Positions 2,042 to 63,899 are shown, numbered from the whole stretch's first letter. The stretch: 63,899 bases of DNA, filler included, from Reclinomonas americana ATCC 50394 (GCA_048213135.1; 11 parts of 5 records of this genome joined end to end with filler, not necessarily neighbours in it); one strand, 5' to 3'. The notes: a model not told the origin generated them from the letters alone. A program made the numbers and translations.

Positions 2042-3202
2042 TTACACATGCACCGGCAAAAAGTACGTCAGCGTCAACTCGTCCATCAGCACCACAATCA
2101 CCAACTGCTGGTCGACAAAGTCTGTGCGCCCCACGCAGTCAGCAATCACCACCTCTCCTCTCATCCTCCCTCCCTCCCATCCACACGCAACGACAAAACA
2201 CATCCCGCGGATTCACGTGGTACGCCTGCAAGAAACGCGACAGCTTCTTCAACTCGACCTGCGCCGATAACCGCTGCGACATTTCCTCGTCCTCTGTGCT
2301 CCCACCGAGTGAGTGTCGAGCGCACGGTCCACTCACCCCCCTCGCATCGCATCGCATACGCACCACCGGCCATCTTCACCTCCAAGCCACGATAGTGCGT
2401 GGTCATGGACAACAGCTCGCCCTCGATGGACAACTCCAACACACCGGTCTGCGCGCTGGCCGTGATGCGGACCAGCGGATCGCCAAAGGCGCGCATGCGA
2501 TCCACCACACGCAGGAGATCACGCAGCGGCGGCAGGCACACCTGCATGTCGTAGTGAAAGTCGTCGCGCGTCGACGGATCCGCCTCCTTTAGCCGCTCCA
2601 GCTCCGACGGCGCCAGCACGCGCACCGAGATCGAGTGCTCCAGCGAGTCGATTTGCGGCTGTCACACCACAGTGAGCGACACGGCGCAGTAAGACAGAGA
2701 GTGGTAGGATGGGAGACCAGGAGAGCGCAACATCGCGCATGGTGAAATTCAGGACGGCTTGTGATCCGCGCTTGGCCAACTTGACTTTGACCAGAGACAT
2801 GGACTCGGCGTCTTTCAGCACCTTTTGCAGCATGCTGGCGTCGATCTCCAGGCACACATCGTTGTGGAGGCTCTCAAACAGGTACTGATCAAAGAGTTTG
2901 CTGTGCGGAACGCGTCCCCACACCTGTTTCTGCGTGTGTGAGAGAGAGACACAGGCGAGGAAGAGAGAGTGTGTGTGTGCGCGCACCTGCATGCCATCGG
3001 AGGCATCGGCGGTGGTGGCAATGAACATGATGGTGTCGGGTTGAAGTCGCAGAAACATGCGACGATCGACTTTCTCCAGGCATTGACACACCCCTGGCAC
3101 CACCCACGAGTGAGACAAGGAGAGTGACACAGAGAGCAAGAGAGAGAGAGAGACGCAACGGCAAAAGAGAGCCGAGTCCGTGAGCTTTGCTCTGAATTTC
3201 AT
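2042..3202 (-). CDS. HUS1: Checkpoint clamp 9-1-1 subunit Hus1 (6 exons)
   Basis: Starts MKFRAKL, contains VKVKLAKR and CLPPLRDLLRVVDRMR, ends LTYFLPVHV*, all typical Hus1 motifs. Five GT-AG introns restore one continuous frame; donors include 3159, 2986, 2731 and 2191. Confidence 0.88.
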
Positions 3203-3430
3203 GAGAAAATAAAATGGCGGGAGGTCGATGTCGACTCCGGGAAGGACGCGTCGACGTCAAAGTGCGACACACACAGCAACAACCGCACCAACACCTCGTG
3301 CGCTTTAGTACACGCACACACACGCACACATGCAGAGAAGAAAAAAAGAGACAACAACACCAACTTCCAACCACACAAACAAATCGTGTCCTGTTGCCCA
3401 GCCGGCTCTCTCTCAATCAATCAATCGCAA
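3203..3430. promoter_or_regulatory. Putative bidirectional promoter between HUS1 and the divergent gene at 3431
   Basis: Only ~228 bp separate the divergent ATGs (3202 minus, 3431 plus). Contains AAAATGGCGG at ~3211, matching the YY1-type core AANATGGCGG. Confidence 0.45.
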
Positions 3431-6400
3431 ATGAGCAGCGCGTCGTCGCCGCCTCCTCGCGACACCTCGTCCATCACCATCGCCGCCACACGGCCTCATC
3501 ATCGACACGGGAACAAGGCTTCGTTGCGATCGGTGTTTGCTGCTCCTGCCAGCAAGAAGCCGGCGCCGCAGCCTTTGCGTGGCCGACCTCGTGGTGGCGG
3601 GCGGGAGGAGGAGGAAGCGGAGAGAGGAGAGGACTCGTATGATGAGTGGAAGGCGTCGTCGAACACGGAGGCAGAAGAGGATGATGAGGATGATGACGAG
3701 AAGGAGGAGGATGAGGATGATCATCGTCCAGTGATACAACAGACAGTGGCGTCTCCGCCTCCACCGCCTCCACCACCGCCACCACCTCCGCCACCTCCAC
3801 CTCCACCACCGCCACCTGTGGCAGAGGCACCGGTGAGTACACAGTGTGTTGCCTCTGCTGCTCTCTGCGTGTGCTAAAGAGTCGCGACCTGCAGATGTAT
3901 GTCATTCCACAGATCGTGCTCACTCCGACGCCACCACCTCCACCGCCACCGCCACCGCCACCACCAGTAGAAGCAGAGAAACAACAGAAGCCACGGGATG
4001 TCGACACTGACGACGACGATGGGATTGAGTGCTTTCCGCCAGTGTCGGAGCTGCTAGCTGACATTTTGGGACCGAAACGACGAAGTGGGGCCCACACCAC
4101 CGCCACCAGTCTGGAATCGCTGGCGCTCTCGCCACGGGCGCCTGCTCTGTCGTCCATGTTGACGGAGGAGGAGAAGGCGCGGCACGATAAGAAGCAGGGG
4201 GAGGAGGAGGAGGAGGATCCGTTGGCGTCGTTGCGGAAACGACAGCAGGAATCGACGCTGTCGGCGGATGTGGCGGCGTACTTGTTGCGTTTCCTCTTGT
4301 CTTGTCTTGTCTCGATCACCCTGCTGTCGTTGCCGTGGAGCTCACGCCCGTTGTTGCTACTTCGCAGGCGTGGCATTGGTCAGACGTCGCTGTTGTTGAG
4401 TCCACCGACTTCGTCGGCGGCATCGTCCGTGTCGCCGGGTCCTACACCGCGCGCCAAGTCGGCCTCCGGGTCACCGCGGCGACGGCGCCTCACTAAGCAG
4501 GAGACGGTGGAGTCGAGTCGACGGCTGTGCGAGGAGGAGGTGGCGAAGCGAGCGGAACACCTGAAGCAGTTGCGCGAGCAGCATCCGCTGGTGTCACCTC
4601 GACGACAGTCGCCACACTCCAAGCGGCAGCGTGACGAGGACCGAGGTGCGTGAGACGGAGAGAGAGAGATGATGACGAAGAGTGGTTGCTCATGCTTTTG
4701 CGTGCAGTACCGCTGGTGGAGCGAATCGATGTGATTCTCGAGCGTCGCAAGACGTGGCTGGCCAAGCAAAAGGCCGAGATGGATCGACGCACCGAGCAGG
4801 AGATCACACTCAAGCCGGAGATCAACAAGAACTCCAAAACCATCGAGCGCTCCGTGACACACCTGCTGGCCTGGGTTCGTCCCCCACTTGTAGCGAGTTT
4901 TCCACCATTGCTCTGCTGATCCACTCATGTTCGCTGTGGTGCAGGATGAAGCTCGAAAGGCCAACCTCACCAAGACCAAGGAAAAGTTCAAAGCTGCCGA
5001 GGCCGCTGTGGTGACGTTCAAGCCACAGCTGTCGCCCACATCCATCAAGGTGAGGAGGACGACGCCTGTGAATGCTGTGTTGGAGAAACTGACGGTTTTC
5101 TTGTGAGCAGCTTGTGAAGCAGAAACGCGAGTCTGGTGGATCTGTCGCTGGTGCGCCGTGTGATCGCACGCCTGTTGTGTTCTCTTGCGGGTGCTCATCC
5201 GTTCTTCGTCGCAGAATCAACGTCGGTTTCACCGCCACTGGGCGACGCAGCCGCGCCGCCAATCAACGGCGACACTAATGGACGCAGACCAAGTCGCAGT
5301 GCGTACACAATCCTGTGCTTTCACTTTTTCGTAGACATGCAGAGTGTGCTCATGCCTCGATGCCCTGCTGCGCAGCCAAAATATCAAAGACCGAGCTGCT
5401 GGCAGAGGTTGCGCAGTCGCGTCGACAATCGGGGACGTTTGAAATGATTCACCAGCGCATGGCCAGTCGCGAGCTGTTGCGTTTTGGCGAGGCTTGAGAT
5501 GTTGGTGTGAGTACGTGACCTCATGCAGCGCGTAACAGGAAAAAGCGATTGCGGGAGATGCGAGAGATGGAAGAGGAGCAGGTGCTGGCAGAGGAGAAGG
5601 TGCAAGAGGATGTGGTGCAGTCTGCGTGCGATCGATTGTACAGTGCGGCTTTGTCGGATCGCGGTCGACGGGAGGAGAAGAGGAGGCAACGGGAAGAGGA
5701 GGTGCTACAAGAGGAGGAACGGCTGGTGCGTTCCCCTGCCGATGTTCCCTGTTTCTTTCCACCACCTCATTGTCTGCGCAGAGAAGAGAGGGTGAACGCA
5801 TCCGTGCGGTGGCGGCTCGGCGGCGAGTGCCGTTAGCACGGTCAGCATCCTCGTAATCCGTAACCACTGGTTTCCGTTCTCAACCCCCTCTGTTGTTCGT
5901 GTCGCAGCGAGGAGACGCCACTGGATCCGAGCTTGGACGATATTGTGCGGCCGGTGAGTGGCGAAAATCAAGTGCAGAAGTGTTGAGCTCCTTCCCAAAG
6001 TCTCACTCTCCTCCTCAAAAAGGTGGATGCAACGGAGTTGTATCAGCGCATTGTGGATGCCGACGCCTCTGGTGTCGAGTTCGACTGGGCCGCCATTGAC
6101 GCCTTCACGCGATCGCTACCACCCACCGGGACGCACAGTCGCAACGCCAGTCACCACTCCAACTCCAGCTACCCGTACCTCTTGTTCAGCACGCCACTCT
6201 CCGCACACGCTCGCCGTCCACTGCCGGAGGACGCCGCAAGCAGCCACAGCGGTGGCAGTCACAGCCACAGCAGCAGTGGCAACGGTGCGTATCGTCGCGC
6301 CGGACTGCGACCACCGCAGTGGGATCAGGTGCCACCTGCAGCAGCAGCAACAGCATCAGCAACAGCGTCGCCTCGTTCACCGCGACAAGCACAACCAGCT

Positions 6401-6620: not shown

Positions 6621-8269
6621 ATGGTGAGAGGGGAGAAGAACACAAGACACACGCTCTTGTCGTGTGCTTGCTGACACTTGCATGCAGGGAAGAATCAACA
6701 TTCGTGTTCGCAGTTCACAAACCTCGGCCACTGGTACGTACACACACATGCATCACTCACTGCGTGCGTGCGAACATTGTTCTCACACACACATGCGCAG
6801 TGAGCTCTGAGCTTGGAGGCACAGTGCTGCAACTGAAAGAGGGTACGTTCACCACTAACTACTGACGCATCTCTCACCTCCCCGCAACTCACACTGATCA
6901 CAGACATTCGTGCGGCGGTGCCACAGTGGGCACGTTTTCCGGCCTCTGACTTGACTCTGCTCTTCCGCGGTCGCCGTTTGGACGACACTGATGTGCTGGA
7001 GGCGGCAGGTCTCAGTGACGATGTGGCACTGGTGCTTGTGTTGCCGCCCTCGTCGGGCTCCTCACTGGGATCAGTGGCCTCTTCGTCGCCTCTCGACGCT
7101 CTCGGCTCAAGTCCACCGCAGAGTCCGCCTGGCGCCTCTGCTCCGCCGGCTCCGATTGCACAGGGCGGGGGTGGAAAGGCGGTGGCGGGATCACAGGCAC
7201 CGGTGTGTTCGCTTTTCATTGCCATGCAAGACACATGCTGGGATTCACCTTGCCGCGCGTGCAGATCGACGATTCGGTGCTGGTGAACGTGCGCATTGGT
7301 GATGGATCGCACTCGCGTTGCGTGCTCTCCTCCCTGTCGCGCTTGTCGCGTATCCTGTGCGCTGATGCGTCTTTGTCGGTTTGCAGTGCGAACAAAGCTG
7401 AACCGCACCACGTTCCTGTTGAAACGAGGTGTGTGCTTGTGTGTGCGCCGATCCCTTGACTGCCTCCGCACCCACTGCCTCACTCGTTGTTTTCGTTGGC
7501 CAGATCTCAAGGCACTGGGCATTCCGGCGTTGGCGCGTGTCGAGCTCGAGGACATTTGCTTGGTGTGGGGAGGTCGCGAAATGGTCGACGGCAACACACT
7601 GGCCGCCGAGGGTGTCTACGAGGGTGCCTCGTTGCTCTTTGTGCAAAGGTCGGTGCCCCTTGTGTGTGTTTTATCAATTGTTCTTCTCCCCACTCACTCG
7701 CAACATGGACAGAGCGCGTGGAACGTCGCCGCCACCACAGCAGCCGCCAATATACCCACGAGCACCACCAGGTTACCCCTACCCACCCAACCTCAACTAC
7801 CCCACCAACCCCAACTACTACGGCGCCGTGCCACCGGGGGCGTACCCGCCCGTGAATCCTCCGATACCGGTGGCGCCACCACTGCGCGGTGGTGGTGTCG
7901 AGCGGCGACCACTGCTGGGCGGTGATAATCGCGACGCAGGTAGAAGCGCGAGCTGTGCGAGTTGTGGCACGCGGATCACCAACAAGGGCGCGTGGGCGTT
8001 CTTTGCACTCTTTATTGGCGTCACCTCGATTCTCGGCATGGTGGTTGTTGTGTCGCCGGTGCAGTACCAGAGCGCCGGCATCTTCACCTTTATCCGCCTC
8101 CCGTGCATCATCATTCCACTGTTGACGGTGTTGGGGACGTGCTTCGAATGCTGCGTGACGCCACCGGCCGCACGGCTGCGCATCGCCTCATTCATCTCGG
8201 CTGCGTTGTACGCCGGCACGTTTGTCTGTCTGCTGGTGCTCGACGGCTTCGGTTTCTACTTTTCAACCA
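6621..8269 (+). CDS. Tandem ubiquitin-like domain, Pro/Tyr-rich, multipass membrane protein (3' end in gap)
   Basis: Spliced frame gives MGRINIRVR...TVLQLKEDI...LTLLFRGRRLDDTDVLEAAGLSDDVALVLV (UBL1) and VLVNVRIG...ICLVWGGREMVDGNTLAAEGVYEGASLLFV (UBL2). These are followed by a PPIY/PPGY-rich linker, ERRPLL and three hydrophobic helices. Confidence 0.7.
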
Positions 8270-9961: not shown

Positions 9962-11731
9962 ATCGAAGAAGGTCGCCACGGCAATCATGGCGATCTTCAG
10001 ATGCGTGTACGAGATGATGTAGCGGCCGTCGACGCGGACTGTGCGGGCATAGGTCGCATGAGGCAAGGGGTGGGGGAAAGGGGCGAGGAAGGAGAGTGCA
10101 GTAGAAGGGGAGAAAAGAGCGAAGCGAGTAAAGAGAGAGAGAGAGAGAGAGAGAAGGGATAAACCGAATGTGAGAGAGAAACAAAGGCGAATGAAGATCG
10201 TAGGGCAACCTGCTCGGCAACTGTCGGGCGCGGGGTGAGGACAGCGGAAAGAAGAGAGGAGAAAATATGCAAATCGGAAGTAAAGGAGAAGGGATGAACC
10301 AAGCGAGAGGGAGAGAAATGAGTGAAGTGTGTATGGCGAGCGAAGGAATAGGGGAATATGCGAGACAACCTTTCTGCGCCTGTGAGACGCGGGAGAGTAC
10401 TCTAAAAAGAGGAAACGTTACAGGATGCAAATCACGAGTTGGGATGGAGGGGAAAGAGCAACCCGAGTGGAAGGAAATGGAGAAGAGATAAAACGAATGC
10501 GAAAGACTGAAATCTTACAAGAGTCACTGCTCCGCAACCGGCTGGCGTGGGAGGAAGACAAGGGAAAGAAAAGAGGAGAGGGATACCCTGAGTGGAAGGA
10601 AATGGAGAGACGATAAACCGAATGCGAAAGAAGGAAATCCCACGAGAGTCCCTGCTCCGCAACTGGCTGACGTGGGAGGAAGACAAGGGAAAGAAAAGAG
10701 GAGAGGGATACCCTGAGTGGAAGGAAATAGAGAGAAGATAAACCGAATGCGAAAGAAGGAAATCTCACGAGAGTCTCTGCTGCGCAACTGTCGGACGTGG
10801 GCGGAGGACAAGGGAAAGAAAAGAGGAGAGGGATACCCTGAGTGGAAGCAAACGGAGAGAAGATAAACCGAATGCGACAGAAAGAAATCCCACGAGAGTC
10901 CCTGCTGCGCAACTGTCCGACGTGGGAGGAAGACAAGGGAAAGAAAAGAGGAGAGGGATACCCTGAGTGGAAGGAAATAGAGAGACGATAAACCGAACGC
11001 GAAAGAAGGAAATCCCACAAGAGCCACTGCTCCGCAACTGGCTGACGTGGGAGGAAGACAAGGGAAAGAAAAGAGGAGAGGGATAATCCGAGTGGAAGGA
11101 CATGGAGAGAAGATAAACCGAATGCGAGAGAAGGAAATCTCACGAGAGTCCCTGCTGCGCAACTGTCCGACGTGGGGTCCGAGTAGCTTTGGGGCACTGC
11201 TCAGAAAGAATAAATAAGCTGGAGGTCGGGAAAAACCGTACAGGCGACCCAGGGGCTACGCAACTGTAGATGAAGGCACAGACATAGTACAGCGCCATGC
11301 TCAGCACGCTGAATACGGCGTACGCAATGTGGCGCCCGGACCAACAAGGCAACCTTCACACACACACACACAGCAATAATGAGTCACCAACATGTGCAAC
11401 AGGATGCCGCTCACACCATCACCACCGCTGCACTCACGTGGGATCGTCGTCGAGGTACGGCATGACTGGACATGCGCCGGGGGTGGCACACTCGTACGTG
11501 CATGAGATGGCCGAGAACAGCTTGAAGTAGACCAGCACACAGAGCACCGAGTAGAAATACTCGACCAGCAGTGTGTTGTCCTTGAGGGCACGCAGGAAGC
11601 GCACGTTGTTGTTGAGCAGGAGCAGCGAAAAGAGCAGCACCAGCGCGACCACCGGCCAAAAGGCGTACGGGTAGTACGAGGTGTTGTTCGGGATGCGGAG
11701 GAGGAAGACCGAGAAGACGTCGCGGAGGTTG
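9962..11731 (-). CDS. Internal exons of a multipass (7TM-like) membrane protein with Cys-containing extracellular loop
   Basis: Four exons splice in frame: ...YFKLFSAISCTYEC...YLDDDPT / LPCWSGRHIAYAVFSVLSMALYYVCAFIY / MPQSYSDPTSD (11196-11164) / IRVDGRYIISYTHLKIAMIAVATFF. Both ends lie in gaps. Confidence 0.65.
10450..11175. repeat. 125-bp tandem minisatellite, ~6 copies, intronic
   Basis: GGATACCCTGAGTGGAAG (last copy variant) recurs at 10581, 10706, 10831, 10956 and 11081. A degenerate copy lies at ~10155-10265. Confidence 0.95.
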
Positions 11732-12040: not shown

Positions 12041-12089
<49 letters not shown>

Positions 12090-18056: not shown

Positions 18057-18872
18057 GTTGCCTGGTGTACAAGGCCCTCGAGTGCGTCTCACGTATTCTC
18101 TCTGGCTTTGATCATGTCACTCATCATATGGAACTGGCGCAGATCCCAGAACCTGGAAGACCTCCTTCTCCTTCCGCGTGCCGGCCGTGCTCCACTCTCT
18201 GTCGTACAGCGCGTGCAGATTGGTCTGGGACTGGCCGAGGCCGTGGTGTTCTTGCACAAGGTCTGTGACACTGCACAGTCATTCCTCCCTCTCCTTCCAT
18301 CTGACCATCACCGCGCCCCGGTCGCAGAACAATGTGGTGCACCGCGACATCAAGCCCTCCAATGTACTCCTGGATCACCGACTGGAACCATGTCTCGGCG
18401 ACTTTGGCATTGCGCGTTCCATCGCTGCTGGCAAGGTTTGTTGACTCGTCCTCCGTGCCTTCCGATTCTCTATCTTGCTCACGCTCCTGTCTCATTCTTT
18501 TCGCAGACCACCACCGCCGTCGGCACGCTGGACTACATGGACCCTCTGCACATGCACTCGAGGAGCCCGCAGCCCGAGAGCGACGTTTTCGCCACAGGCA
18601 TTGTGCTCGTGCAACTGGTCACCGGCAAATCCGTTACCTCCGTGCGCGAGTGGTTGAGTGCGTGGGACCGACAGCCTACTTCCATCCGCGTGATGGAGCT
18701 GGTGGACGCCGGTGAAGGCGTGGAATGGACTCCACGCATCGCCGAGCCCATGTTCGAGCTCGGCATGCGATGCATGAGTTTGCGGCGGGACCGGCCGGCG
18801 GCGCAGGAGGTGCTGGAGGTGATGCGCGCACTTAGGGAGGCGTGCGGGCAGTTTACGTTGATTGTGGGATGA
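18057..18872 (+). CDS. IRAK/Pelle/RLK-like kinase, C-terminal half
   Basis: CLVY...RVQIGLGLAEAVVFLH / VVHRDIKPSNVLLD...DFGIAR / VGTLDYMDP...SDVFATGIVLVQLVTG...RDRP across three GT-AG introns. Confidence 0.88.
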   Translation, partial: VAWCTRPSSASHVFSLALIMSLIIWNWRRSQNLEDLLLLPRAGRAPLSVVQRVQIGLGLAEAVVFLHKVCDTAQSFLPLLPSDHHRAPVAEQCGAPRHQALQCTPGSPTGTMSRRLWHCAFHRCWQGLLTRPPCLPILYLAHAPVSFFSQTTTAVGTLDYMDPLHMHSRSPQPESDVFATGIVLVQLVTGKSVTSVREWLSAWDRQPTSIRVMELVDAGEGVEWTPRIAEPMFELGMRCMSLRRDRPAAQEVLEVMRALREACGQFTLIVG

Positions 18873-46600: not shown

Positions 46601-48843
46601 CGTTGCGTCGGCCTCCTTTTGAAATTGAGTGGCTCCCCTCATCTTCACTCACTCTTTCCCTCTTGCAGTCAATTCTACGTCATCACCCCCATCTTCCTGT
46701 TCTCGTACAAGTTCCGCCGCTGGCTCGGATGGTCGCTGCTGTCGCTGTTCACTGTCGGCAGCCTCGTGTCCACGGTGCGTCACCTTTTTGCACCAGCATT
46801 ATCATCATCTTGTGAGGCTCACCCGATCTTCCCCTTACTCCAGGCCGTCGTCGTGCACCTCAATCCCATGACGTTGTACCCGCTCGATACCACCGGCAAG
46901 ACCGAGGCCTACATCACCAACGTGTACTCGAAGCCGTGGACGCGCATCAACACGTACCTCATGGGTATCGCGCTCGGCTTTGTGTTTGAGTGGCTGGAGA
47001 AGCGCAACCAGGAGCAGGCCTCCTCGGCCGCCGCCACCACGACGTACGTCTCGCTGTACGACACGCCCGCGGGTCCAGTGGGGCAACCGCGCTGGTTGAT
47101 GATCCGCAACTACACGGTGTACGTGGTCTCGTGCACCATTATGTTGGCGTGCGTTTTCGGTGCCTACGACTTGTTCCATCACCGCTCGTTGAGCTGGACG
47201 CAGACACAGGAGCTGTTCTACATCAGTTGCGAAACTAGCAAATTGATTGTCTGTGTCTGCGCAGTATCTCACTGTCTCGTGCCAGCGTTTTCGCGATTTG
47301 GCTGGTCGTTTGCGATTGCCTTGCTGGTGTGGGTGCTGGCCACGTCGGTGAAGCATCCGTTGCGTGCATTCTGCTTGGCGTAGGCACCGGTGATGGCGAC
47401 GATGGATTGCTCACACTACGCGTCTGTGTATATGTGCAGATCGTTCCCGCACATCAAGGTCGACAACATTTGGCGGAGGTTCCTCAGCAGCGCCTACTGG
47501 GCGCCGTTTGCGCGTCTCACCTGTTGCGTTTGTGTGTCGCTGAGAGGGGAGAGTGGCAAAGTTGTGTGTGGTGGTGCTTACGGTCGGTGGCGAGCAGACT
47601 CGGCGTACTTGTTGCACCCGATTACGATTCGCTATTTCTTCGCCTCGCGCAAGACGTTTTTCATGTACACTGGACAGGTGAGCGGCGGGGGGCGAAGGGG
47701 AAGGGGAGAAGGAGGGAAGAGGCAAGGGAGAAGCAACCGTGCGTGTTGGAGAGGGACATTAGAGTGAGTCGTGTAGATGGCACCTGGTATCGTGGTGTGT
47801 CTTCAATTATGCGTCTAGTTGTTGGTTCGTATTGTGAAGGAATCGTATCTGCACGAGGTAGAGCGTGCTGAGTCTTCTCTCTCTCTGTCAACGTCCCCCT
47901 CTGGGTGACAGAGTGCTGAGCTTCCTCTGCCTCTCGCTGCGCTTGTCTGTGCGTGTTGTGCGTTTGCGCATGTCCGTGTGCTGAGCTCTTACTGTACTCG
48001 TGTCACATGGTTGTGTATGTGAGAGTCATCTTCTTTCGCACGCTGCACTTGCCTGTGGAATTGTGTGCTGCGGTGTGTGGTCGTTTGATGTGAGAGTGAG
48101 AGTGAGTTCTGTGCCTTCTCTCTTTCTCGCTGTGTGTTGTGCGCTTGTTAATGCTCGTGCACATGTCCGTGTGTTGAACTCTCTCACTGTGCTCGTGTCA
48201 CATGGTTGTGTATGTGAGAGTCGTCATCAATCTCTCGCGGCGCTTGCCTGTGGAATTGTGTGCTGCGGCGTGTGGTCGTTTGATGTGAGAGTGAGAGTGA
48301 GTTGTGTGCCTCCTCTCTTTCTCGCTGTGTGTTGTGCGCTTGTTAATGCTCGTGCACATATCCGTGTGTTGAACTCTCTCACTGTAGTCGTGAGTGTGTA
48401 TCCGTGCGAATGAGAGATTGCTCTTCTGTCTCTCGCTGCGCTTGCCTGTGGAATTTGTGTGCTGGGGTCTTCCTCCCCGCACATGTGCGTCTGTGGTCGC
48501 GCAATTGTATATCCGTGCGAGTGAGAGAGTTCTGAGCCTTCTCTTTCTCACTGTGCTTGCGAACATGCGTGCTATTTGTGCGCTGATGAGCCCGTGTGCT
48601 GTCTGCGTGTGCGTTCTCTTGATTGTGCAGTTGTGCATTCTTTCTTCTGAACTCTTCTCCCGCTCCCTCCCCTTCCCTCACCTCCTTCCCCTCCCACAGA
48701 GCGTGACGGTGTACGCCATTGCCAACATTCTCTGGGCCTACGTGCTGGCCTACGTGGTGTTTTTGGTGGTCGAGCGACCCTTTATGAACCTCGAGCGGTT
48801 CGTTTTGCCCCATCGCCGCAGCCCAGCCCAACCACAGAAGTAA
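43628..48843 (+). CDS. NRF-6/OACYL-like acyltransferase-3 family membrane protein (12 exons)
   Basis: Signal peptide and NRF domain (GNYDAC...LGMCVPLSC). LNGIRVISMFWIILGH, AVDTFFLLSGFL, HRVWRLTP, CMAWLWYLANDTQFY, YSKPWTR, FARLTYSAYLLHP, VERPFMNLE. Confidence 0.93.
47930..48560. repeat. Intronic tandem repeat (~200 bp; two near-exact plus degenerate copies)
   Basis: CTCGTGTCACATGGTTGTGTATGTGAGAGTC...GCCTGTGGAATTGTGTGCTGCGG at ~47997 and ~48192, partial at ~48440. Confidence 0.88.
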
Positions 48844-50115: not shown

Positions 50116-52728
50116 ATGGAGTACCCGCTGCTGGTGCAGCAGCCGCCTCCTCCTCAGCACCCACCTCCTCCTCCACCTCCGCCTACGCGAAAGCCACCTC
50201 CACCATCACAGGCGCCTCCTCCTGTGCCTTCTTCGCAGTCTGTCGGTCAGTCGCTGGTCGGTGGAGGAGGAGCGAGGAGTGTGGCCTCGTCTGCGGCCAC
50301 CACTCCTCCGCAGACACCGTTTGCGCATGTGACGACGACGGCAGCTGCTGGGCATCACTATGCGTCGCATCAGCAGCAGCAGCAGCACTATCATCATCAT
50401 CATGTGACGGTGCCGGTCGGTGGCACGTTATCGCTGCCGGCCGGTGCGCAGCAGCAACCGCAGAGGTACTGCTCTCTGGGAATAGAGAGTGTTGTGTGTG
50501 TGAACAGGTGATTGATTGATTGTGGTGGATATATCGCGCAGTGATGAGGAATCGTGCATCTCGGTGGCGGTCCGCTTGCGGCCGCTGACGGAGCGGGAGA
50601 TTGCGACGCATGCGACGCCGCGGTATCAGAATAAGATGGGCGTGGTGCTGCGGGCGCAGGATGGGTGAGTTGGTGGGAGAGAGATAAGGGGGGAGGGGGA
50701 GAGGGAGGGGAGGAGAAGGGAGAGAAGGAGAGGGGAGGAAGAGATGAAGAGGTGAGACGGCTTGGGAGCGACTGTGCGGTCGTGCGATGGAGAGAGAACG
50801 AACGTGTCTCGAGTCGGTGACAGTGTGTCATCAACTTGCAGAGCTTGTATGAGAGTGTGAGAATGTGTCTGTGTATATCGATGAGAATGGGTGAATATGG
50901 AAAGCAGAGAGTGCGTGCGGATCTCAGAGAGGGAAGGATAGCACAACTGTTAGCTTGCGAGAACACAGTGACACTCAATTCCACCAAGGATGCGAAAGAG
51001 GAGAGAGAGGGCGAGGGAGAGAGGCACGCAATCGTATAAGTGTCGAGCGCATCTAGCTGTGAGAAGATCACCGTGTACGCATACGTTTGTGAGTGAGAGA
51101 GAGACACGATTGAATGGGTGTCGAGTGCATGTAGACCTCCTTGTGACGTCGTGAGATGCACATCGCAATGCCGTCTGCCTTGCCTCATCTCCTGCTCACT
51201 TCCTGCCTCCACAGCATGGCGTGCCTGTTGGACCCCGAGTCACAAAACCGTGAATCATATCCCATGGAAAGACATCGTCGAGAACGGACGTATGCTTTTG
51301 TTGCGTATTCCCGCCCCGCCATCCACGCATTGTCCGACTGTCTCTGAACGCCGACCTGCAGGATCACGTGTTTGACGAGAGCACTCAAAACGAGGAAGTA
51401 TACAGCGTGTGCGCCAGACCACTGGTCGATTCAGTAATGGAGGGCTACAATGCGACATGCTTCTGCTACGGCATGACCAGCGCCGGCAAGACGTTGAGCG
51501 CTCACCTCCCCATCTCCCTCCTCCTCCTCCTCCCTCTCTCTCACTTACACGTATGCACGCACAGCTACACCATGATTGGTGCAACGAATGAGGATGGAAC
51601 GATCAGCAATGCGGTCAAGGGCATCTACACGCTGGCCATCGAAGACATCTTTTCTCGAATTGCCGTTGCGCTCCTTTTTCTTTTCCTTGTTTCTCTCTCC
51701 AATGCACTCACACAGCATCTATTTTACTTGGAGCAGAAGGACGACGACAATGCATGCACTGTACGAGTCTGCTTTCTCGAAATCTACAACGAGAAGATCA
51801 AGGACCTGCTCACAGCTCCACCTGGTGCGCACAACAGACTCGCCTGTTCAACCATGCATGTTCCTCATCTCCTGTTGCTGCAGCACCAACGGGGAACTCA
51901 AACGGCACCACCGGAGTCGGCAACGGAGCGTCGGCACCCTCGCTGGAGCTGCAAGAGGATCCTGTGCGTGGCATGGTAGTGCAGGATCTCACCGAGTACG
52001 AGGTGCACTCGGTGGAGGAGATTCACGGCATCATCAACTATGGCAATAGGTGAGCGACAGCGCTCAGGTCTCCTCTCTCTGTTTCTCGCAGGGCTCTGAC
52101 TCTCTCTCCTCAACAGTCGCCGCACCATGGCGCCCACCGGCGCCAATGTGGTCTCGTCGCGTTCGCATGCAATTTTGCAAATATCGGTGGAGATTCGACC
52201 GCGCATGCGTGACATTCGGGAGAACGTGCGTATTGCCAAGCTGTCGCTGATTGATCTGGCCGGTTCGGAGCGGGCGGCGGCTTCGGACAATCGGGGCATT
52301 CGCATGGTCGAGGGCGCCAACATTAATCGCTCTCTTCTCGCCCTCGGCAACTGCATCAATGTGCTCTCGGACCAAAGCAAGCGCGGCGCCTTTGTGCCGT
52401 ACCGTGATTCCAAGTTGACGCGCCTGCTCAAGGACTCTCTCGGCGGCAACACCAAGACCGTCATGATTGCCAATGTTTCTCCGTCGTGCGTGTGCTACGA
52501 GGAGACGCTCAACACGCTCAAGTACGCCAACCGAGCCAAGCATATCAAGAAGAAGGTGTGCGGGTGGAGGAGGGGAGAGGGGAGGGAAGGGAGGGGAGCG
52601 GGCACGTAACGGCGAGCAGCACGCGCGGGGGAATGATTTTGCGAACCCATGTGTGTGGATGTGTGTGTGTGTAGAGAGAGAGAGAGAGAACTGTGTGTGT
52701 GTATGTGTGTGGGTGGGTGTGGATGGGC

Positions 52729-52797
<69 letters not shown>

Positions 52798-53198
52798 AGA
52801 GTAGAGAGTCGTACGGAGAGTAAGAAGTGAGTACGTCTTCGTCGTCGTAGAACGAAGACGAGGACGGACGCGACGTCGTGTAGTACGACGAANNNNNNNN
52901 NNNNNNNNNNNNNNNNNNNNNNNNNNNNNNNNNNNNTTAATTAATTAANNNNNNNNNNNNNNNNNNNNNNNNNNNNNNNNNNNNNNNNNNNNGGTACGGG
53001 TACGGTAGGTACGGTACGGTACGGTACGGTAGGTAGGTACGGTAGGTAGGTAGGTAGGTAGGTAGGTAGGTAGGTAGGTAGGTAGGTAGGTAGGTAGGTA
53101 GGTAGGTAGGTAGGTAGGTAGGTAGGTAGGTAGGTAGGTAGGTAGGTAGGTAGGTAGGTAGGTAGGTAGGTAGGTAGGTAGGTAGGTAGGTAGGTAGG

Positions 53199-53260
<62 letters not shown>

Positions 53261-56200
53261 GGAGAGAAACTGAGTGAGGATGAAAAAACGGGATGGTGAA
53301 GCTTCGGAGAACGTGAAAATGAGAGCTTCTCGCCGTTGCAAAGTCAGAGGGACGCAGCTGAGTTGCCGAAAGTCAGAGAGGGAAAGAGAGAGAAATTCTC
53401 GCTGCAGCGTATTGACAGCGGGAGTCGCTGTAACCGAGAGAGACCGACACCGCAATCAGAGATTCAGATACATTGTGCACTTGTCGCTGAAGATGAAAGC
53501 AGAGACGTGCCGTGGGAGAGTGTAGGCAACATATCTAACTCTTCCTTGTATCACCCACGCAGGTCCACAAGAACACGCTGATGGTGGAGAACCACATTTC
53601 GCAGTACAAGCAAATCATCGAGGCGCTGCATGGCGAAATTCACGAACTGAAGGTCTTGTCATGCGGCAACTTGCTGTCGACATCCTCCTGTTCTTGTGCT
53701 TACATTCCTCGCTATTGTAGGAAAAACTGCGATACTCGGAAGCAGAAAAGGAGGAGATTGTGCGCGAGCGATCTGTGCTGATGCTGTCGTCCAACTCGGC
53801 CGACGGCTTCAGCGAGGTGCCGCCGGCGTCGCCGTCGGCCGCCGACATGATTGTCACGGAGGAGGAAATGACGCCAATCAACGAGCAAATATCGCGCACC
53901 GAGGAGCAGCGGCAGCAGGTCAAGGCAATGCTGACCAAGCACAAGGAGACGCTGCTCCGCACGCAGCCGCAGTCCGACGAGGAGGAGGAATTCGAGAAGT
54001 TTGCGCAGCGATTACTCGGCAATTTCCAAATGCGCATCGACCTGTCGCAGTCGCTGATGGAGATTGAGGAGCAGAATGCGCAAAACCACAATGTGGTGGA
54101 GCGTGTCACTGCCGATGTTGACAAGCTGCAGCAGCAATTGGTGCGTGTCTCCAAAGCCTGGGAACCCTTATGATTGCACACTCTTTTCTCACGCACTCTG
54201 CTTGGTCTCGTTGCAGGAGCGCGCCCAGTCGCAGGACGAGTGCAGGAGATTACAATTGCAGTTGTCCAAGTCACTGCAGGAGATTTCCACCATTGAACGA
54301 AACACGCAGCAAAACGAAAAGGTAAGAGTCTACAGGAGAGGGAGGAGGAAGAAAACAGGAAGCCCTCTTTGCTGAGCGTCTACTGCAGATCAAGGCTGGA
54401 CTGGTACAACGGTTACGCGACAACGAGGAGGAGAAGAAGAGGTTACAAGAGGCCTTGCTTGGGCTCAAAGCCGGCAACCAAAGAAGCATTGTGGAGCTGC
54501 AGGTGCGTGTGTGTGCGCGCGCGCATGTCAGTCGCCCCATCTATTTTGATTACTAAATTCGTTCTCGACAGGTTGCCGTGCATCAACTGAAGCTCGAAAA
54601 ACTCGAGATGCAGCGCAAGTATCTCGAGCTGCAAAAGGAGGCCTACATCAAGGACAAGGAGAAGGCGGCGAAGGAGAGGCAACTGAGTCACATGCAGAGA
54701 GAGGTGCAGCACTTGAAGGCCGAGCTCATTCAGCGAGAGGCATTGCTGCACGGCTCGCAAATGTCCGTGTCGTTTGACACGAGTGGCACTGGTGAGTGCC
54801 ATTGAGATGCTTGTCTTTGCGCCGTAGTTTCACGTGAGTAACACTGTGGCGTACACCTACAGATCGGAAACAATCGAGGAGAAGTGGTGGTGACGGGAAA
54901 GCGACTGGCTCATCATCGCAAGCGGGAGGCAAATCGTCGACACGGGGTGGCGGAAGCAACGGTGGTTCCAGTGCTCGGTGAGTGGTTTCTTCTCTCGCTG
55001 TCGTTTCTTTGTCATCCTCTTTATGACTCACACTTTGACGGCCACCAGCGTACCACCACTGAATCTGTCGGCGGTGGCGGGAGGATCGAGTTCCGGCAAT
55101 CTGGCTGTGCGCGGCGCGCTCTCCGACCACACTCGAGGCAGCTTGTCGGCGCGCGAGGATGAAGGAGGTACCGAAGAGGAGTCACTGTCGGCTCGCTCCA
55201 AGCAGGCGCTGTCAGATCGATCGCATCACCACGGTTTGTGCGTGTGTGTCTCTTCACTCCTCCACACGCTGCGCTCACGGTCGATTGTCGAACAGGTGTC
55301 GATCTGGCTGCACGGAGGCGATCGTTGGGAGCACCGGCGGCTACTGCCGCAGCCGCAGCAGCTGCAGCCACGCTCGGTCAGCGCAAGAAGCCAGTGTTTG
55401 GATCTAGTCGCGTGCAGCAGGGTGCTGCCTCGGCGGCGGTGATGGGTGTGGGCAAGGTGAGAGTGGAGGAGAGGAGGAGAAGGGGGGAGAGGAGAGAAGT
55501 AGGAGGGAGAGGGGGATGGGAGGGAGGGATAAAAGAGAGGGNNNNNNNNNNNNNNNNNNNNNNNNNNNNNNNNNNNNNNNNNNNNNNNNNNNNNNNNNNN
55601 NNNNNNNNNNNNNNNNNNNNNNNNNNNNNNNNNNNNNNNNNNNNNNNNNNNNNNNNNNNNNNNNNNNNNNNNNNNNNNNNNNNNNNNNNNNNNNNNNNNN
55701 NNNNNNNNNNNNNNNNNNNNNNNNNNNNNNNNNNNNNNNNNNNNNNNNNNNNNNNNNNNNNNNNNNNNNNNNNNNNNNNNNNNNNNNNNNNNNNNNNNNN
55801 NNNNNNNNNNNNNNNNNNNNNNNNNNNNNNNNNNNNNNNNNNNNNNNNNNNNNNNNNNNNNNNNNNNNNNNNNNNNNNNNNNNNNNNNNNNNNNNNNNNN
55901 AGGGAGGGAGGGAGAGGAGAGAAAGTGTGTTTGCTTGGAAGATGAATGAGAGATTGCATGAGTGCGGAGATAAGGATGGGAGAAATGTGATTGTGCGTGT
56001 AATGTGACAGCAGCTGGTCGTCCGCTGCGTGTGCTGCTTTGCACCGGCCGGTAGATAAAGGCTTGTGGACGTGTTTCTCTCTCTCTCTCTCTCTATGTAT
56101 GTGTATGTGTNNNNNNNNNNNNNNNNNNNNNNNNNNNNNNNNNNNNNNNNNNNNNNNNNNNNNNNNNNNNNNNNNNNNNNNNNNNNNNNNNNNNNNNNNN

Positions 56201-59200
56201 NNNNNNNNNNNNNNNNNNNNNNNNNNNNNNNNNNNNNNNNNNNNNNNNNNNNNNNNNNNNNNNNNNNNNNNNNNNNNNNNNNNNNNNNNNNNNNNNNNNN
56301 NNNNNNNNNNNNNNNNNNNNNNNNNNNNNNNNNNNNNNNNNNNNNNNNNNNNNNNNNNNNNNNNNNNNNNNNNNNNNNNNNNNNNNNNNNNNNNNNNNNN
56401 NNNNNNNNNNNNNNNNNNNNNNNNNNNNNNNNNNNNNNNNNNNNNNNNNNNNNNNNNNNNNNNNNNNNNNNNNNNNNNNNNNNNNNNNNNNNNNNNNNNN
56501 NNNNNNNNNNNNNNNNNNNNNNNNNNNNNNNNNNNNNNNNNNNNNNNNNNNNNNNNNNNNNNNNNNNNNNNNNNNNNNNNNNNNNNNNNNNNNNNNNNNN
56601 NNNNNNNNNNNNNNNNNNNNNNNNNNNNNNNNNNNNNNNNNNNNNNNNNNNNNNNNNNNNNNNNNNNNNNNNNNNNNNNNNNNNNNNNNNNNNNNNNNNN
56701 NNNNNNNNNNNNNNNNNNNNNNNNNNNNNNNNNNNNNNNNNNNNNNNNNNNNNNNNNNNNNNNNNNNNNNNNNNNNNNNNNNNNNNNNNNNNNNNNNNNN
56801 NNNNNNNNNNNNNNNNNNNNNNNNNNNNNNNNNNNNNNNNNNNNNNNNNNNNNNNNNNNNNNNNNNNNNNNNNNNNNNNNNNNNNNNNNNNNNNNNNNNN
56901 NNNNTGTCACACAAACACATACACAAAGAGAGAAAGAGAAACACGTCCACAAGCCTTTCTATCAGCTTGTGGAAAGCAGCACACGCGGAGGACGACAAGC
57001 TGCTTCCCTACACATACACGCACGCACACCACACTTCTCCCATGTTCACCTCTGCGCTCATACTTTCTCTCGTTTCATCTAGTAACAAACACACACTCTC
57101 TCCCCCTCACTCTGTGANNNNNNNNNNNNNNNNNNNNNNNNNNNNNNNNNNNNNNNNNNNNTTAATTAATTAANNNNNNNNNNNNNNNNNNNNNNNNNNN
57201 NNNNNNNNNNNNNNNNNGAGAAAGAGAGAGAAGCAACGAGAACGAGAGAGATAAGCAGAGAGGAAACAGAAAGGGTCACAGAGTGAGGGGGAGAGAGTGT
57301 GTGTTTGTTGCTAGATGAAATGAGAGAAAGTATGAGCGCAGAGGTTAAGATGGAAGCAGCTTGCCGTCCTCCGCGTGTGCTGCTGTGGACGCGTATTCTC
57401 ACTATCTCTCTCTGTGCGTGTGTGTGAGAGACTAAGAGTGAGTGAGAGAGCGAGAGAGCAAGAGTGCAGTAGATTATTGACTTTGTCTTTACGATACGGT
57501 GATTTGAAGGATAGTGTGTGCGTGTGAGGGATTGATTGGCTATCAGTATCGTGTGTCTGTACAAGTCTCTGACAGTGCACCCGCGCAGGTCCCCGTCATG
57601 TCCGCCGACATTGGCGCTGCATCCAAGTGCGTCCATTATTCTCGATTGCGCTTTGTGTTCCCCCCATCTCACTCTTACTGCTTGACAGTCCGGCTCTGCT
57701 TGGTCGCAAACTGAGTTTGGGACAGCCACAGCGGTCACCGCGAGGTCAGTGCCTGTCTTGATATCTCCTATTTCTCTCTCCTTCGGTTCTCATTTACTCG
57801 CACAGATGTGGTTCCGTCGCAACCCGCATCGCGCACCAACAAGCTGTCCCCGCGTCAAAAGACGGGTGGCTCGTCGGCACTGTCGGATGTGGTCAGTCAC
57901 TGATTTTCCTGTTTCCCCCGTGTGTGTGCAATTTGCTGACCACCTTCGCGCAGCCCACTTCCGAAACATCGAGCCAGGAAAATGACGCGCAGCGAATTCG
58001 GCGGCAGATTATGGAGCGCCAGAAGAAGATTGGCATGCTGAAGCAGGCCAACACGTCCGAGGTGGCAGTTGCGTAACGAATCCTGTGCCTCCTGAGAATA
58101 TTGTGCGAGATCTAATCTCCTGTGTACCCAGCACCAATTCCAACGTCAGCGGCAGCACCAAGACGGCGAATCGTCGGCGTCATCCACGGGCCCACTGAAT
58201 TTCTCCGTGGCACCCGTCAGCCAACCGGCGTTCTCGCCACAGCGACAGACCCCCACTCCGCCGCATGTGACTGTCGCCGCGGTGGCAGGTACAGCGGCAG
58301 CGGCAGCCTCGCTGCGGCCGAAACCACGGCATCCGCCACCTGCGCCACCCGTGGACAGTGCGCCGACTGTAGTGGACATTGCGTCGGCGCCGGAGAGCAG
58401 CATCGATGCCACGGCTTTGCAACAGCAGCAAGTTACGCTCCCTCTGTGGTGATGTATTTCCTGTTTCGATACTTGGCTGACACTCCCTACGTGTGTAGGC
58501 GCGCCTGGCCCGCCGTCGACTCATGCGCCAGCAGCAGCAGTTGCAGGCGCAGCAGAGCCAGCAGCAGCAGATGCAGCAGGCGGCGTCGGCGCAGCAAGCG
58601 CAGTTGGTGGCAGCGTATGAGGAGCAAAAGGCGCGTGAGCGTGCCGAGATGCAGGAGCGTGAGCGCCAGCTGCAGGAGCTGTCGCGTCAGCTGGAGTCTC
58701 GCAAGATGGTTGTGCCGTCGCAGCAGCATGCTGTTGCACCTCCGCCTGTGCCGGCCAGCGTGTCGCTGGCACAGCTCATGGGTGGCAGTGGTGCGCAGCC
58801 ACCAGCCGTTCCGCAGTCGTCGGTGCCGACTGGCGCTCTACCGAAACAGAAGCCGCAGCCAGCGTCGCCGCCGCCTTCTGCGCGCAACTCTGCCATTTCG
58901 CCACCACAAGGTGGCAAGCGACAGTTGTCGGATTCACAGCACAGTGCCTTCCGTCCCGTGGGCAAGCTGTCACCCACCACTGGCATGTCGGTCGACAACA
59001 CGCCGCGCACATCGCAGCAGGCTCACGCTCAGGCACCGCTGCAGCAGCAGCAGTCATCGTCGGCCATTCCGCCGTTTGTGCGCCCCGTGCCAGAGCGACC
59101 ACCACCACAGGCCCCCACGCATGTTGCGTTTTTGCGAGAGGAAGGATACAGGAGTCTTGCTGATAACTCACATTTCACTCGCCACAGGCTCCGCAGTCTG

Positions 59201-59430: not shown

Positions 59431-59464
<34 letters not shown>

Positions 59465-59782
59465 CGCGCGCGACGTACTGGCGCGACTCCTCCACCATCG
59501 ACTCGTTCTACGATGTCGACAGCCACCGTGCCGACGCCCGCTCTACGTTGCGTTCTGCTTTAGCCCACATCCATGTCCCTCGTGATCGTCGTCGCTCACC
59601 GTCCACTCGCTCTACAGCATGCAACAACGACTGGCGGCGATGCAGGGCAACCCGACGGCCGACTCGGCCTCCGTGACCCGTCGCGCCGATGGGGTGGCGT
59701 CGTCGTCGGTGGTGCCGAGCTCCAACGCGCTGTTCATTTCCGCGGCTCGAGGCGGTGGTGCGTCCGCTGGTGCGCTGCAAGT
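50116..59782 (+). CDS. Kinesin-8 family (KIF18/KIF19/Kip3-like) motor with long coiled-coil and Gln-rich tail; 3' end in gap
   Basis: [98 protein letters not shown]. Tail exons chain in frame, but their continuity across gaps is assumed. Confidence 0.9.
52993..53252. repeat. (GGTA)n followed by (GA)n microsatellite, intronic
   Basis: About 40 GGTA units preceded by GGTAC variants. Confidence 0.92.
55901..57390. repeat. ~200-bp intronic repeat in three copies; middle copy (56905-57117) reversed
   Basis: GTGTGTTTG...GATGAA...GCAGCT...GTCC...GCGTGTGCTGCT...GTGGACG at 55901-56110 and 57276-57390, with the reverse complement at 56905-57117. Confidence 0.75.
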
Positions 59783-61491: not shown

Positions 61492-61720
61492 GAAAGAGAG
61501 AAAGAGAGAGGGAGAGCGGTAATCCTAATCATTAAAATACTGTTGTTGCTCAAATCATCAAATTGCTTGCTTTACACGTGTTTCTTCGAGCCACATTCGA
61601 GATCACATATCATCATCATCATCATCACCAGCCATACACACAAACACGCCACCACCGCCAAACTCAAGCGGCGCTCACAAAAACGAGATGCCCAGAGAGG
61701 GAAGCACACACACACACACA

Positions 61721-62029: not shown

Positions 62030-62536
62030 CTAGAAGGGAAAGGAGAATGGAGAACAAATGAGGCACACACAAGGAAAGGGGTAGGGAGGACAGAAAATGA
62101 GCGTCACTAACACACACACAAAGAATTGATAGCAGAGAGCGGCGACACTTTCTACGTCTCACTCTCCCTCAACACATGGACGGAGGGACAAGGCAGGCAC
62201 ATACACAAACAGACGCATCATGGGCGTTACTTTCCTGCGTCGCACTCTCTCCTCGCCCCATCACATTTACACATGGCATTGCGGCAACAATGCAGCAGTA
62301 CCGCACTCTCTTTCTTACTCAGCACACGCACATATTAAAACAAATGCACAAAATAGTTGCATTCTGCGAGGCATTGATCTACACCACACTCTCCTCACTC
62401 CCTCCACACACACACACACGCACACAGGGAATCATGCATGCACAAACAGTAGCTTCACGAGCTCACCCACTCCTCTCCCCAATTCCTCTCCTGTGTGTGT
62501 GTCTTTGTCTGTCTCTTTGTGTTCTCTTCGCGCCTT

Positions 62537-62572
<36 letters not shown>

Positions 62573-62884
62573 TGCTGAGTTCCTCTGTGAGCTCTCTTTC
62601 TCTCTTGTAGTCTTCATTTTCTTCTCTTCTCTTCTCTCTCCCTCCCTCCCTCTCTCTCTCNNNNNNNNNNNNNNNNNNNNNNNNNNNNNNNNNNNNNNNN
62701 NNNNTTAATTAATTAANNNNNNNNNNNNNNNNNNNNNNNNNNNNNNNNNNNNNNNNNNNNGTTCTCTCCCACGTGGGAACGACGACTTCAGGCACGACAT
62801 TGAATCGAACACCGTAGGACAAAATCAATCAGCGACACAAAAGCGTGCCAAGTAAGCCGCGACACACAGCACCAGTCACACGCC

Positions 62885-63899
62885 ATGGCCTCCAACATCC
62901 TCGCCAGCACCTTCAGCGACGACGTGGACAGAACTCGCGGTGGCGGCAGCAGCGCGCCTCCGCATCGCAGCAGCAGCAACGGCAGCACTCGCGCTGCCTC
63001 GCACATAACTGCCACCAGCTCCGCTCCCTTCCCGTGGCTGCGCGACAACACCACCGAGTTCCGCCCATGCCGACGCGTGCAGCCACCACTTGCCGAGTAC
63101 CAGAAGCAGTTCAGTCAGCGCAGACACACAACAACAACGGCTGCAAGTGCTTACATACTGACTCTCTCTGTGTGTGTGCACAGTGAGTTCCTGCACTCGA
63201 GCAGCAGTGCCAGTGACGGGTTGCACGCGGGAGAGGGCCTCACATCCACACGCTTCCACCGCGGCTTCCAGCGGCGACCAGTGTCGGTCATTGATCCGTT
63301 TGTGGAGCGGCATCAGCAGGAGGTGCGACAGGCGGAGCGTCGCGAGCGCTTTGACAGTAAGCGACAGGCGGTGCTTGTGCACATGGATCAGTACAATGGG
63401 TTGAATCCGTTCAATGGGGAGACCACGTCGCCGGAGAAGGCGCGACCGGGGTACAAGCCGGGGCGGCGGCATGTGGATGATGCGCTGGCGTCGAGGGTGT
63501 TTGCTCCACCGCCACGCGCAAGGCCTGTGGTGGACCACACAGTTGCGGGGGAGACAGAGAAAGGGAGGAGAGATATCGAAGAAACAGCCACTGACTGACT
63601 GGCAATGTTGCATGCAGTGGCGTGACATGGAGTTCCGCACCCCCGACGAACCCATTGCTGGGGTGCCACTGACTCGCGAACAGCGGGCACTGCGACTGGC
63701 CACCGATGGCCTGGTCGAGACGAGACGACAGGGGTCGGTCAAGGACACGCTGCAGGGCGGTCACTTTGGGTATGAGTTGCCGGCGGGGATGCGGGCACCG
63801 CCTACCAACACGGCGCCGGCCGCGAAACCGCTGCGACCGGCTCGCACCGCTGCGCAGTCGTCGGCACTGCGCACGGCCATGGGTGGATTGCCGAGCATC
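62885..63899 (+). CDS. Hypothetical protein (runs off window end)
   Basis: ATG 62885. Introns 63109-63183 (CA|GTTCAG) and from 63542 (ACA|GTTGCG) to CATGCAG, then open frame WRDMEFRTPDEP... Confidence 0.55.

Follow-up and report, generated by a model that had tools for sequence, protein, structure and literature searches.

The DNA considered here is a single window of 63,899 bases (the whole stretch that was analysed, from Reclinomonas americana ATCC 50394, GCA_048213135.1), a eukaryotic draft sequence rich in short introns, with 6,074 N in 31 runs and a G+C content of about 40-60%. The element in question is a class of 5' splice sites in its genes, written H|GTTG(C/A)G, where H is an A, C or T at the end of the exon, in which the local donor consensus appears displaced one base into the intron by an extra T. 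The Pfam profiles identified HUS1, a ubiquitin-like domain, a ribosomal-L1-domain protein, WD40 proteins and a protein kinase, the search having been run on stop-free open reading frames (ORFs) of at least 80 amino acids (aa), up to about 41.7 kb of the window; AP-1 mu, a kinesin-8 and an NRF6-like O-acyltransferase were recognised by homology. The closest kinesin in the protein collection, P0001, shares 85% identity across the motor exon, and AP-1 mu has about 70% identity with proteins of animals, haptophytes and other protists. The junctions were read from the DNA and from protein alignment, and the support for each was graded in four levels, namely homology, Pfam, coding flanks and frames. 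The shifted donors are a major class here, making up 12 of the 30 introns supported by homology or Pfam, and their tie to the last base of the exon is absolute in this supported set.

The strongest evidence comes from a purpose-written protein-to-genome spliced aligner, whose knowledge of splicing was confined to a reduced penalty for GT or GC and for AG, and which was blind to position -1 and to positions +3 to +7; it was accompanied by a junction scan, in which every frame-preserving junction within +/-9 nucleotides (nt) was scored with five homologs per gene. Nine of the donors listed in a preliminary description of this sequence were placed by the spliced alignment exactly at H|GTTG(C/A)G. 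In the kinesin-8 gene (plus strand, alignment with P0001) these are the introns 51300..51361 (T|GTTGCGT, tied as best with an equivalent +1/+1 slide), 51493..51564 (C|GTTGAGC, the sole GT/GC-AG pair within +/-9 nt, the splicing of which rebuilds the kinesin-8 P-loop GKTYTM) and 51665..51736 (C|GTTGCGC). The AP-1 mu gene (minus strand) contributes 41296..42002 (T|GTTGCGT, two of three homologs, 408 vs 397 for the GC at +3), 40101..41202 (T|GTTGCGT after ...NNLY, three of three, 493 vs 438) and 38975..39036 (A|GTTGCGC, three of three, 653 vs 598), and the NRF6-like acyltransferase gene (plus strand) contributes 46602..46668 (C|GTTGCGT, nine of nine homologs, 599 vs 554), 47226..47285 (A|GTTGCGA, six of nine, 283 vs 250) and 47523..47597 (T|GTTGCGT, eight of nine, the unique best junction with a score of 444). 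The listed GT..AG was the top GT/GC-AG pair within +/-9 nt at eight of the nine sites, while same-length slides with non-canonical ends occasionally tied or slightly exceeded it, as expected at protein resolution. Two other identities were tried for these introns and rejected. The GC-AG reading, by which the exon would run through GTT to a GC donor, was 11-55 units worse at the seven of nine sites that were scorable and is thus disfavoured. The U12-type introns have a long conserved donor of the RTATCCTT type, and the donors GTTGCG and GTTGAG are not of this type. Branch-like CTCAC or CTGAC words are visible inside introns that were inspected.

The HUS1 gene (minus strand) adds three introns at the Pfam level. 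Its five larger exons are colinear on the Hus1 profile, four of them matching positions 17-49, 49-113, 125-205 and 230-260 of 288, and the last exon, of 25 codons and without a profile match of its own, fills the remaining length; this colinearity supports the donors 3159, 2731 and 2191 within a few residues, not to the base. Intron 1 (3094..3159, C|GTTGCGT) separates a 14-codon exon 1 from exon 2, which begins at profile position 17, and has a 3' signal at 66 nt. Intron 3 (2659..2731, T|GTTGCGC) lies between the exons matching 49-113 and 125-205, the latter from its residue 7, with a flank score of 43.1, and intron 5 (2122..2191, C|GTTGCGT) follows exon 5, which ends at 260 of 288, and precedes the 25 codons, with a flank score of 36.0; an alternative GT 3 nt upstream of 2191 is possible. 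Altogether, a GT-AG pair whose removal restores the reading frame of a conserved protein was found at nine sites by alignment and at three by the Hus1 profile.

Among the 30 supported introns, the base at -1 is other than G in 12 of 12 shifted donors and G in 18 of 18 others (Fisher p 1.2e-8), and the homology-only subset gives 9/0 vs 0/15 (p 7.6e-7). The split of donors by the -1 base had been suggested in the preliminary description, together with the claim that shifted donors follow exons ending in A, C or T, and within the window the split came out as 12/0 vs 0/18. The further claim that plain GTGAG or GTGCG is used after some exons without a final G found no supported case. The occurrence of an exon-final G at all 18 supported non-shifted donors is far stricter than in most eukaryotes. 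Phase 0 is found at 3 of the 12 shifted and 11 of the 18 other donors in our own tally, a trend in keeping with the idea that the shifted donors are used at positions where a codon with a final G is not an option. As for the completeness of this set, the aligner with P0001 gave 14 kinesin introns, of which three are shifted and eight ordinary, and three (53663, 54796 and 55248) were left out of the tabulation because they lie in poorly aligned tail segments. An ab initio gene finder fragmented or over-merged the genes and recovered 12 of 21 verified introns, and it was excluded from the counts.

At the level of the motif, the hexamers named in the preliminary description were found on the indicated strand at all 32 listed positions, and the preceding base is A, C or T at 31 of them, with G at 32065 alone. 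The hexamer GTTGCG occurs 68 times on both strands, and the heptamer GTTGCGT 23 times vs 10.32 +/- 3.04 expected from 100 dinucleotide-preserving shuffles, none of which reached 23; with this excess and the nine donors placed by motif-blind alignment, the class observed earlier is real and more than chance. The listed sites make up 17 of the 23 heptamers, and the remaining six are at 5476, 21579, 24842, 33390, 33808 and 44677. GTTGCGT differs from the ordinary GGTGCGT by one letter, the second, which changes from G to T, and its sole GT begins one base earlier; the cut is therefore placed one base earlier relative to GCG(T), and the intron's first G therefore occupies the place of the exon's last G, in line with the earlier proposal that G+1 stands in for the missing G-1. 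The position tables of the two classes mirror each other with an offset of one base, again as had been described: the ordinary donors have G at +3 in 14 of 17, C/A/T at +4 in 9/5/3 and G at +5 in 16 of 17, and the shifted donors have T at +3, G at +4 and G at +6 in 27 of 27, with C at +5 in 24 and A in 3. The shifted class is stricter for GCG (24 C to 3 A) than the ordinary class at the corresponding position (9 C, 5 A, 3 T), as if the strict GCG were compensating a weaker 5' half. Beyond the list, the H|GTTGCG candidates at 5476 (63 nt), 29770 (minus strand, 69 nt) and 33808 (minus strand, 72 nt) have a branch-like word and a YAG, and they may belong to the shifted class.

The same class emerges from tests that make no use of gene annotation. 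The 3' signal was defined as a branch-like word plus a YAG ending 45-110 nt downstream of the donor, and the combined test as this 3' signal plus coding-like flanks. The H|GTTG(C/A)G sites have the 3' signal in 31 of 84 and pass the combined test in 15 of 84, as compared with 1110 of 7602 (14.6%) and 155 of 7602 for all GT sites, and they stand above all other GT sites with p 3e-7 for the 3' signal and 1e-10 for the combined test. After G the same hexamers give 1/11 and 0/11, respectively. With A, C or G as the extra base, H|GT(A/C/G)G(C/A)G, the values are 22/201 and 4/201, so the enrichment for intron signals is confined to the extra T, an extra A, C or G remaining at background. The ordinary motif after G, G|GTG(C/A)G, gives 25/134 and 13/134, and after non-G, H|GTG(C/A)G, 72/521 and 12/521, the latter at background (p 0.63 vs the remaining GT sites). 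A second score, blind to the donor, reached at least 30 in 9 of 68 shifted sites after non-G and 9 of 205 GT(A/G)NG sites after G, as against, for the rest after non-G, 4 of 811 GT(A/G)NG sites and 25 of 3209 others. This scoring is crude, verified introns spanning -28 to 51, and therefore it gauges enrichment and not single sites.

The ordinary donors, which serve for contrast, are spread over the same genes. In the kinesin-8 gene (plus strand, alignment with P0001) they open the introns 50665..51214 (G|GTGAGT), 51825..51883 (G|GTGCGC), 52050..52116 (G|GTGAGC, also by the junction scan), 52556..53562 (G|GTGTGC, with N runs within the intron), 54141..54216 (G|GTGCGT, also by the scan), 54322..54388 (G|GTAAGA), 54503..54571 (G|GTGCGT, also by the scan) and 54978..55048 (G|GTGAGT). 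In AP-1 mu (minus strand) three of three homologs support 39123..39885 (G|GTGCGT), 38136..38196 (G|GTCTGC, also by the junction scan) and 37322..37745 (G|GTGAGA, with N runs within the intron). The donor of a further AP-1 mu intron, 38319..38816, is ambiguous between 38816 (G|GTGCCG), 38810 (G|GTGCCA) and 38801 (G|GTGAGT); with eight homologs the three best all follow G, and T|GTGAAG at 38795 is the last of six. The acyltransferase gene (plus strand) has 46347..46431 (G|GTTTGG, with G at +5 and thus in the canonical register; eight of nine homologs), 46775..46843 (G|GTGCGT, four of nine) and 44393..44494 (G|GTGCGT, two of nine). The profile-supported cases are HUS1 2930..2986 (minus strand, G|GTGCGC, profile 17-49 and then 49-113), HUS1 2294..2363 (minus strand, G|GTGCGT, or G|GTGGTG 3 nt upstream, by the Hus1 profile) and the kinase intron 18436..18506 (plus strand, G|GTTTGT), across which the Pkinase profile runs from 116-151 to 153-259. 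On the plus strand at 45044-45146, the acceptor 45146 has three in-phase GT donors (45044, 45071 and 45077), which read A|GTGAGC, G|GTGCGC and C|GTGCCA; homology does not choose between them, and A|GTGAGC would be unshifted after a non-G exon end.

Outside the homology and Pfam sets, seven of the listed sites (4284, 34976, 35167, 47359, 58068, 58432 and 59123) reach the flank-score level, which is a score of at least 20 with an intron of 60-100 nt. The local choice of acceptor by coding potential was frequently wrong and was used for the flanking peptides alone. On the plus strand, an unnamed gene has 4284..4367 (T|GTTGCGT, flank score 32.8, 84 nt, 3' signal), the acyltransferase gene has 47359..47439 (C|GTTGCGT, 22.4, 81 nt, 3' signal), which homology does not resolve, and the kinesin tail has 58068..58149 (A|GTTGCGT, 30.3), with its acceptor uncertain between 58131 and 58149, and 59123..59187 (T|GTTGCGT, 23.4, 65 nt, 3' signal). 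The variant A|GTTACGC at 58432..58531 (plus strand) scores 22.6 without homology. The kinesin tail (55.9-61.5 kb) aligned with P0001 and P0002 at scores of 152 and 127 and gave no usable junctions, the tail not being conserved. On the minus strand, the gene of a repeat-rich secreted protein has 35095..35167 (A|GTTGAGT, 29.9, 73 nt, 3' signal) and the variant A|GTTTCGT occurs at 34917..34976 (31.3, 60 nt), where nearby in-phase GTs score alike.

Four more introns can be read from frames. The variant T|GTTTCGT at 36916..36972 (minus strand) gives a 57-nt intron with a branch-like CTGAC and a CACAG acceptor and follows a signal-peptide-like exon, and at 36686..36747 (minus strand, A|GTTGCGT) the frames fit with an atypical acceptor, AAAAG. 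The variant A|GTTCAGT at 63109..63183 (plus strand) gives a 75-nt in-frame intron that fits the flanking frame; a GT 5 nt downstream would break the frame, and intron retention would likewise preserve it. At 63542..63617 (plus strand, A|GTTGCGG) a 76-nt intron with a 3' signal links the upstream ORF frame to the downstream ORF. Weaker sites are C|GTTGCGT at 7317..7386 (plus strand, 3' signal at 70 nt, flank score 7.4) and at 59547..59617 (plus strand, 71 nt, 10.6), and the 3' signal is the sole sign at 30787..30856 (minus strand, A|GTTGCGC, 70 nt, flank score -14.5) and 31468..31531 (minus strand, A|GTTGAGT, 64 nt, 0.1). The motif stands by itself at 25697..25703 (plus strand, A|GTTGCGT, with an open hydrophobic frame upstream by eye, in the gene named TMEM94 in the preliminary description), 11258..11264 (minus strand, A|GTTGCGT, without independent support), 11157..11163 (minus strand, A|GTTGCGC, in the first copy of a 125-nt tandem repeat, all units of which contain the word, likewise without independent support) and 29580..29586 (minus strand, T|GTTGCGT, no short-intron model). 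The exception 32065 (31996..32065, minus strand, G|GTTGCGC) has the motif and the preceding G that had been reported for it; its use as a donor is poorly supported, the 70-nt GT..CAG intron having a branch-like CTAAA by eye and a flank score of 2.3, and the 3' signal pattern search found no match there. None of the 32 listed sites was refuted.

Several features lie beside these sites. The 125-nt tandem repeat (10461-11176, minus strand, 5.7 copies, 89% matches) lies just downstream of donor 11163, every unit of it bears CAGTTGCG(C/G)AGCAG, and it probably sits inside an intron. At about 29500-37000 on the minus strand are one or more genes of many short exons, with a signal-peptide-like start, a Cys/Thr/Ser-rich stretch and GGGAL...FxxN-type repeats; their ORFs of at least 80 aa gave no Pfam match, and an exon at 33 kb, compared with 1.84 billion representatives, gave 10 weak repeat matches and no ortholog. 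Long proline runs (CCA/CCG/CCT repeats) at 3740-3830 and 3920-3965 (plus strand) lie on either side of an intron at 3833 whose donor is G|GTGAGT. Eleven pairs of 44-N runs, the members of each pair exactly 12 bases apart (e.g. 9862-9905/9918-9961 and 24518-24561/24574-24617), probably stem from masking or scaffolding and have no biological meaning.

We consider it rather probable that the window contains genuine introns of the U2 GT-AG type in which a second 5' splice site, H|GTTG(C/A)G(T), is frequent and has its recognition frame shifted by one base. The shifted register itself is inferred from the general scheme of U1 pairing and from the available part of Tan et al. 2016 (PMC4856993). At early recognition, the 5' end of U1 or of a cognate variant would read a 7-letter word in one fixed frame, which for the second donor class would amount to a one-base-shifted register, and the scissile bond would be set later, at the only GU of the word. 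Such an arrangement would let introns sit where the coding sequence offers no exon-final G. In a more specific and tentative form, to which we give somewhat less than an even chance, the splice site would be the word G-N-T-G-(C/A)-G-T in a fixed frame, cut at its GT, and a second U1 variant might recognise it. If N is G, the cut would fall after the first letter, and if N is T, before it; the G of the first position would be obligatory, whether exonic or intronic, and about a third of the introns would be shifted.

A number of observations weigh against this explanation or against the strictness of the rule behind it. A GC..AG pair lying 3 nt upstream of 51665 does slightly better (504 vs 499), which leaves the listed junction tentative, and at 42002 one of the three homologs chose the GC donor 3 nt downstream. 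The three kinesin introns that were left out read T|GCGGCA (53663), A|GTGCCA (54796, 32 nt) and T|GTCTCT (55248) and, if real, would be unshifted with non-G exon ends. The -1 position of the shifted class corresponds to -2 of the ordinary donors, and as no more than 2 of 17 of these have a G there, its avoidance is less remarkable. Independent evidence is weak or absent for at least 10 of the 32 listed sites: four show the 3' signal only, four show nothing and two have an atypical or unscored acceptor signal. All counts come from one 64-kb window, whereas the preliminary description spoke of a genome-wide mode. Lastly, nearest-neighbour folding against the textbook U1 5' end, from which the organism's own U1 may differ, gave canonical-register duplexes of -3.8 to -11.3 kcal/mol for 18 of 18 ordinary donors, whereas the duplexes of the 12 shifted donors range from +0.7 to -2.6 kcal/mol in any register, and the shifted register is optimal in 5 of the 12 only (the canonical one in 0 of 12).

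Because of this very weak pairing, it is not obvious that an ordinary U1 in a simply shifted register would suffice, and the weak pairing, together with the preference of C over A at +5 (24 to 3), keeps a variant snRNA (small nuclear RNA) or protein contribution a live alternative. In its full form, unlikely as we judge it, this alternative supposes a dedicated factor, that is, a second U1 variant, another snRNA or a protein cognate to GTTGCGT, for which the site would not be shifted at all. It would account for the very poor pairing of the textbook U1 end with all 12 shifted donors in spite of their position in housekeeping genes, and for the predominant C at +5 as compared with the mixed +4 of the ordinary donors, a C that the usual pairing partner would not favour. 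However, weak donors are tolerated by the short introns of many protists, and the window holds no snRNA gene: an Rfam scan of it found no U1, U5 or U6 gene, nor any other Rfam family or tRNA.

A bulged register, in which U1 would keep its canonical frame and one T of +2/+3 would be looped out, is very unlikely in our estimate, although such a 'bulge +2/+3' class is known for human sites (68 predicted, 54 after curation, in the available part of Tan et al. 2016, PMC4856993) and the GTT word lets either T pair. A bulge would permit any extra base, yet the 3' signal is found in 31/84 for T vs 22/201 for A, C or G; it would favour G at -1, yet G precedes 0 of 27 listed GTTG(C/A)G sites, the one exception apart; and the folding picked no bulged canonical register for the 12 sites. 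The preliminary description had left the choice as 'shifted or bulged', and of the two a one-base shift fits better than a generic bulge, since no base other than T is inserted and -1 shows an avoidance of G. That there is no special class at all, only degenerate donors or misplaced junctions patterned by a motif-based choice of sites, is highly improbable: the earlier list was indeed built by motif, at least 10 of its sites lack independent support and the gene finder, recovering 12 of 21 verified introns, provided no complete unbiased catalogue, but the motif-blind set gives GTTG(C/A)G at 9 of 9 non-G donors and G before 15 of 15 others, the GC-donor alternatives score worse and the motif count exceeds all 100 shuffles.

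The significance of a fixed recognition frame with a displaced cut lies in a question under continuing debate, namely what makes the spliceosome cut at an exact position once U1 has located the region, with the exon's last G, U5, U6 and the LUC7/SNRNP27K/METTL16 axis all in play; the human shifted and bulged registers are rare and have been studied minigene by minigene. If the fixed-word form of the explanation is true, the frame of early recognition and the place of cleavage would be uncoupled naturally and throughout this genome. A genome in which many constitutive introns of housekeeping genes had a displaced donor, all-or-none with respect to the exon's last base, would be a natural experiment with thousands of paired sites, its own snRNA set and separate predictions for the shift, the bulge and a variant snRNA. 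There, gene finders trained on one donor matrix would place about one junction in three wrongly. No lineage with a frequent GTT-shifted donor was found described in the literature searched, in which subscription journals were not covered. Metagenome kinesin loci were tried as relatives and rejected, the nine that were aligned, out of 80, having 29-51% G+C and ordinary GTAAGT-type donors.

Of the known systems, the GC-AG introns resemble the present class in that the word, read as GTT|GCG, would contain an in-frame GC donor, and they differ in that this reading is disfavoured here by the alignment scores. Shifted-register 5' splice sites of humans were reportedly treated by Roca and Krainer in 2009. 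As in the present class, the consensus of these human sites is matched one base rightward, the cut is at GU, and T stands at +3 and G at +6; in contrast to it, they are rare and have long downstream pairing, whereas here 12 of 30 supported introns are shifted, the class is tied to the exon's last base and GCG pairs poorly with the textbook U1. The class described here is, moreover, known from sequence alone. Human shifted-register sites are also described in Tan et al. 2016 (PMC4856993), in the available part of which all noncanonical registers together make up 2.1% of human sites, with 68 predicted for bulge +2/+3. The latter share with the present class the GTT start and a consensus displaced by one base, but, as far as the available part of that paper goes, they differ from it in that here the inserted base is always T, the -1 position avoids G and the frequency is orders of magnitude higher. 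The LUC7 classes of 5' splice sites are the subject of PMC11842720, and two major classes, AG//GU vs //GURAG, are distinguished in the available parts of Parker et al. 2022 (PMC9803359) and of a review (PMC11732430). The trade-off between an exon-side G and the intron-side sequence is common to these two classes and to the donors of the window; however, in the portions of those sources at hand the register is unchanged, while the donors of the window have the intron-side motif one base further in and, in the supported set, an all-or-none split at -1.

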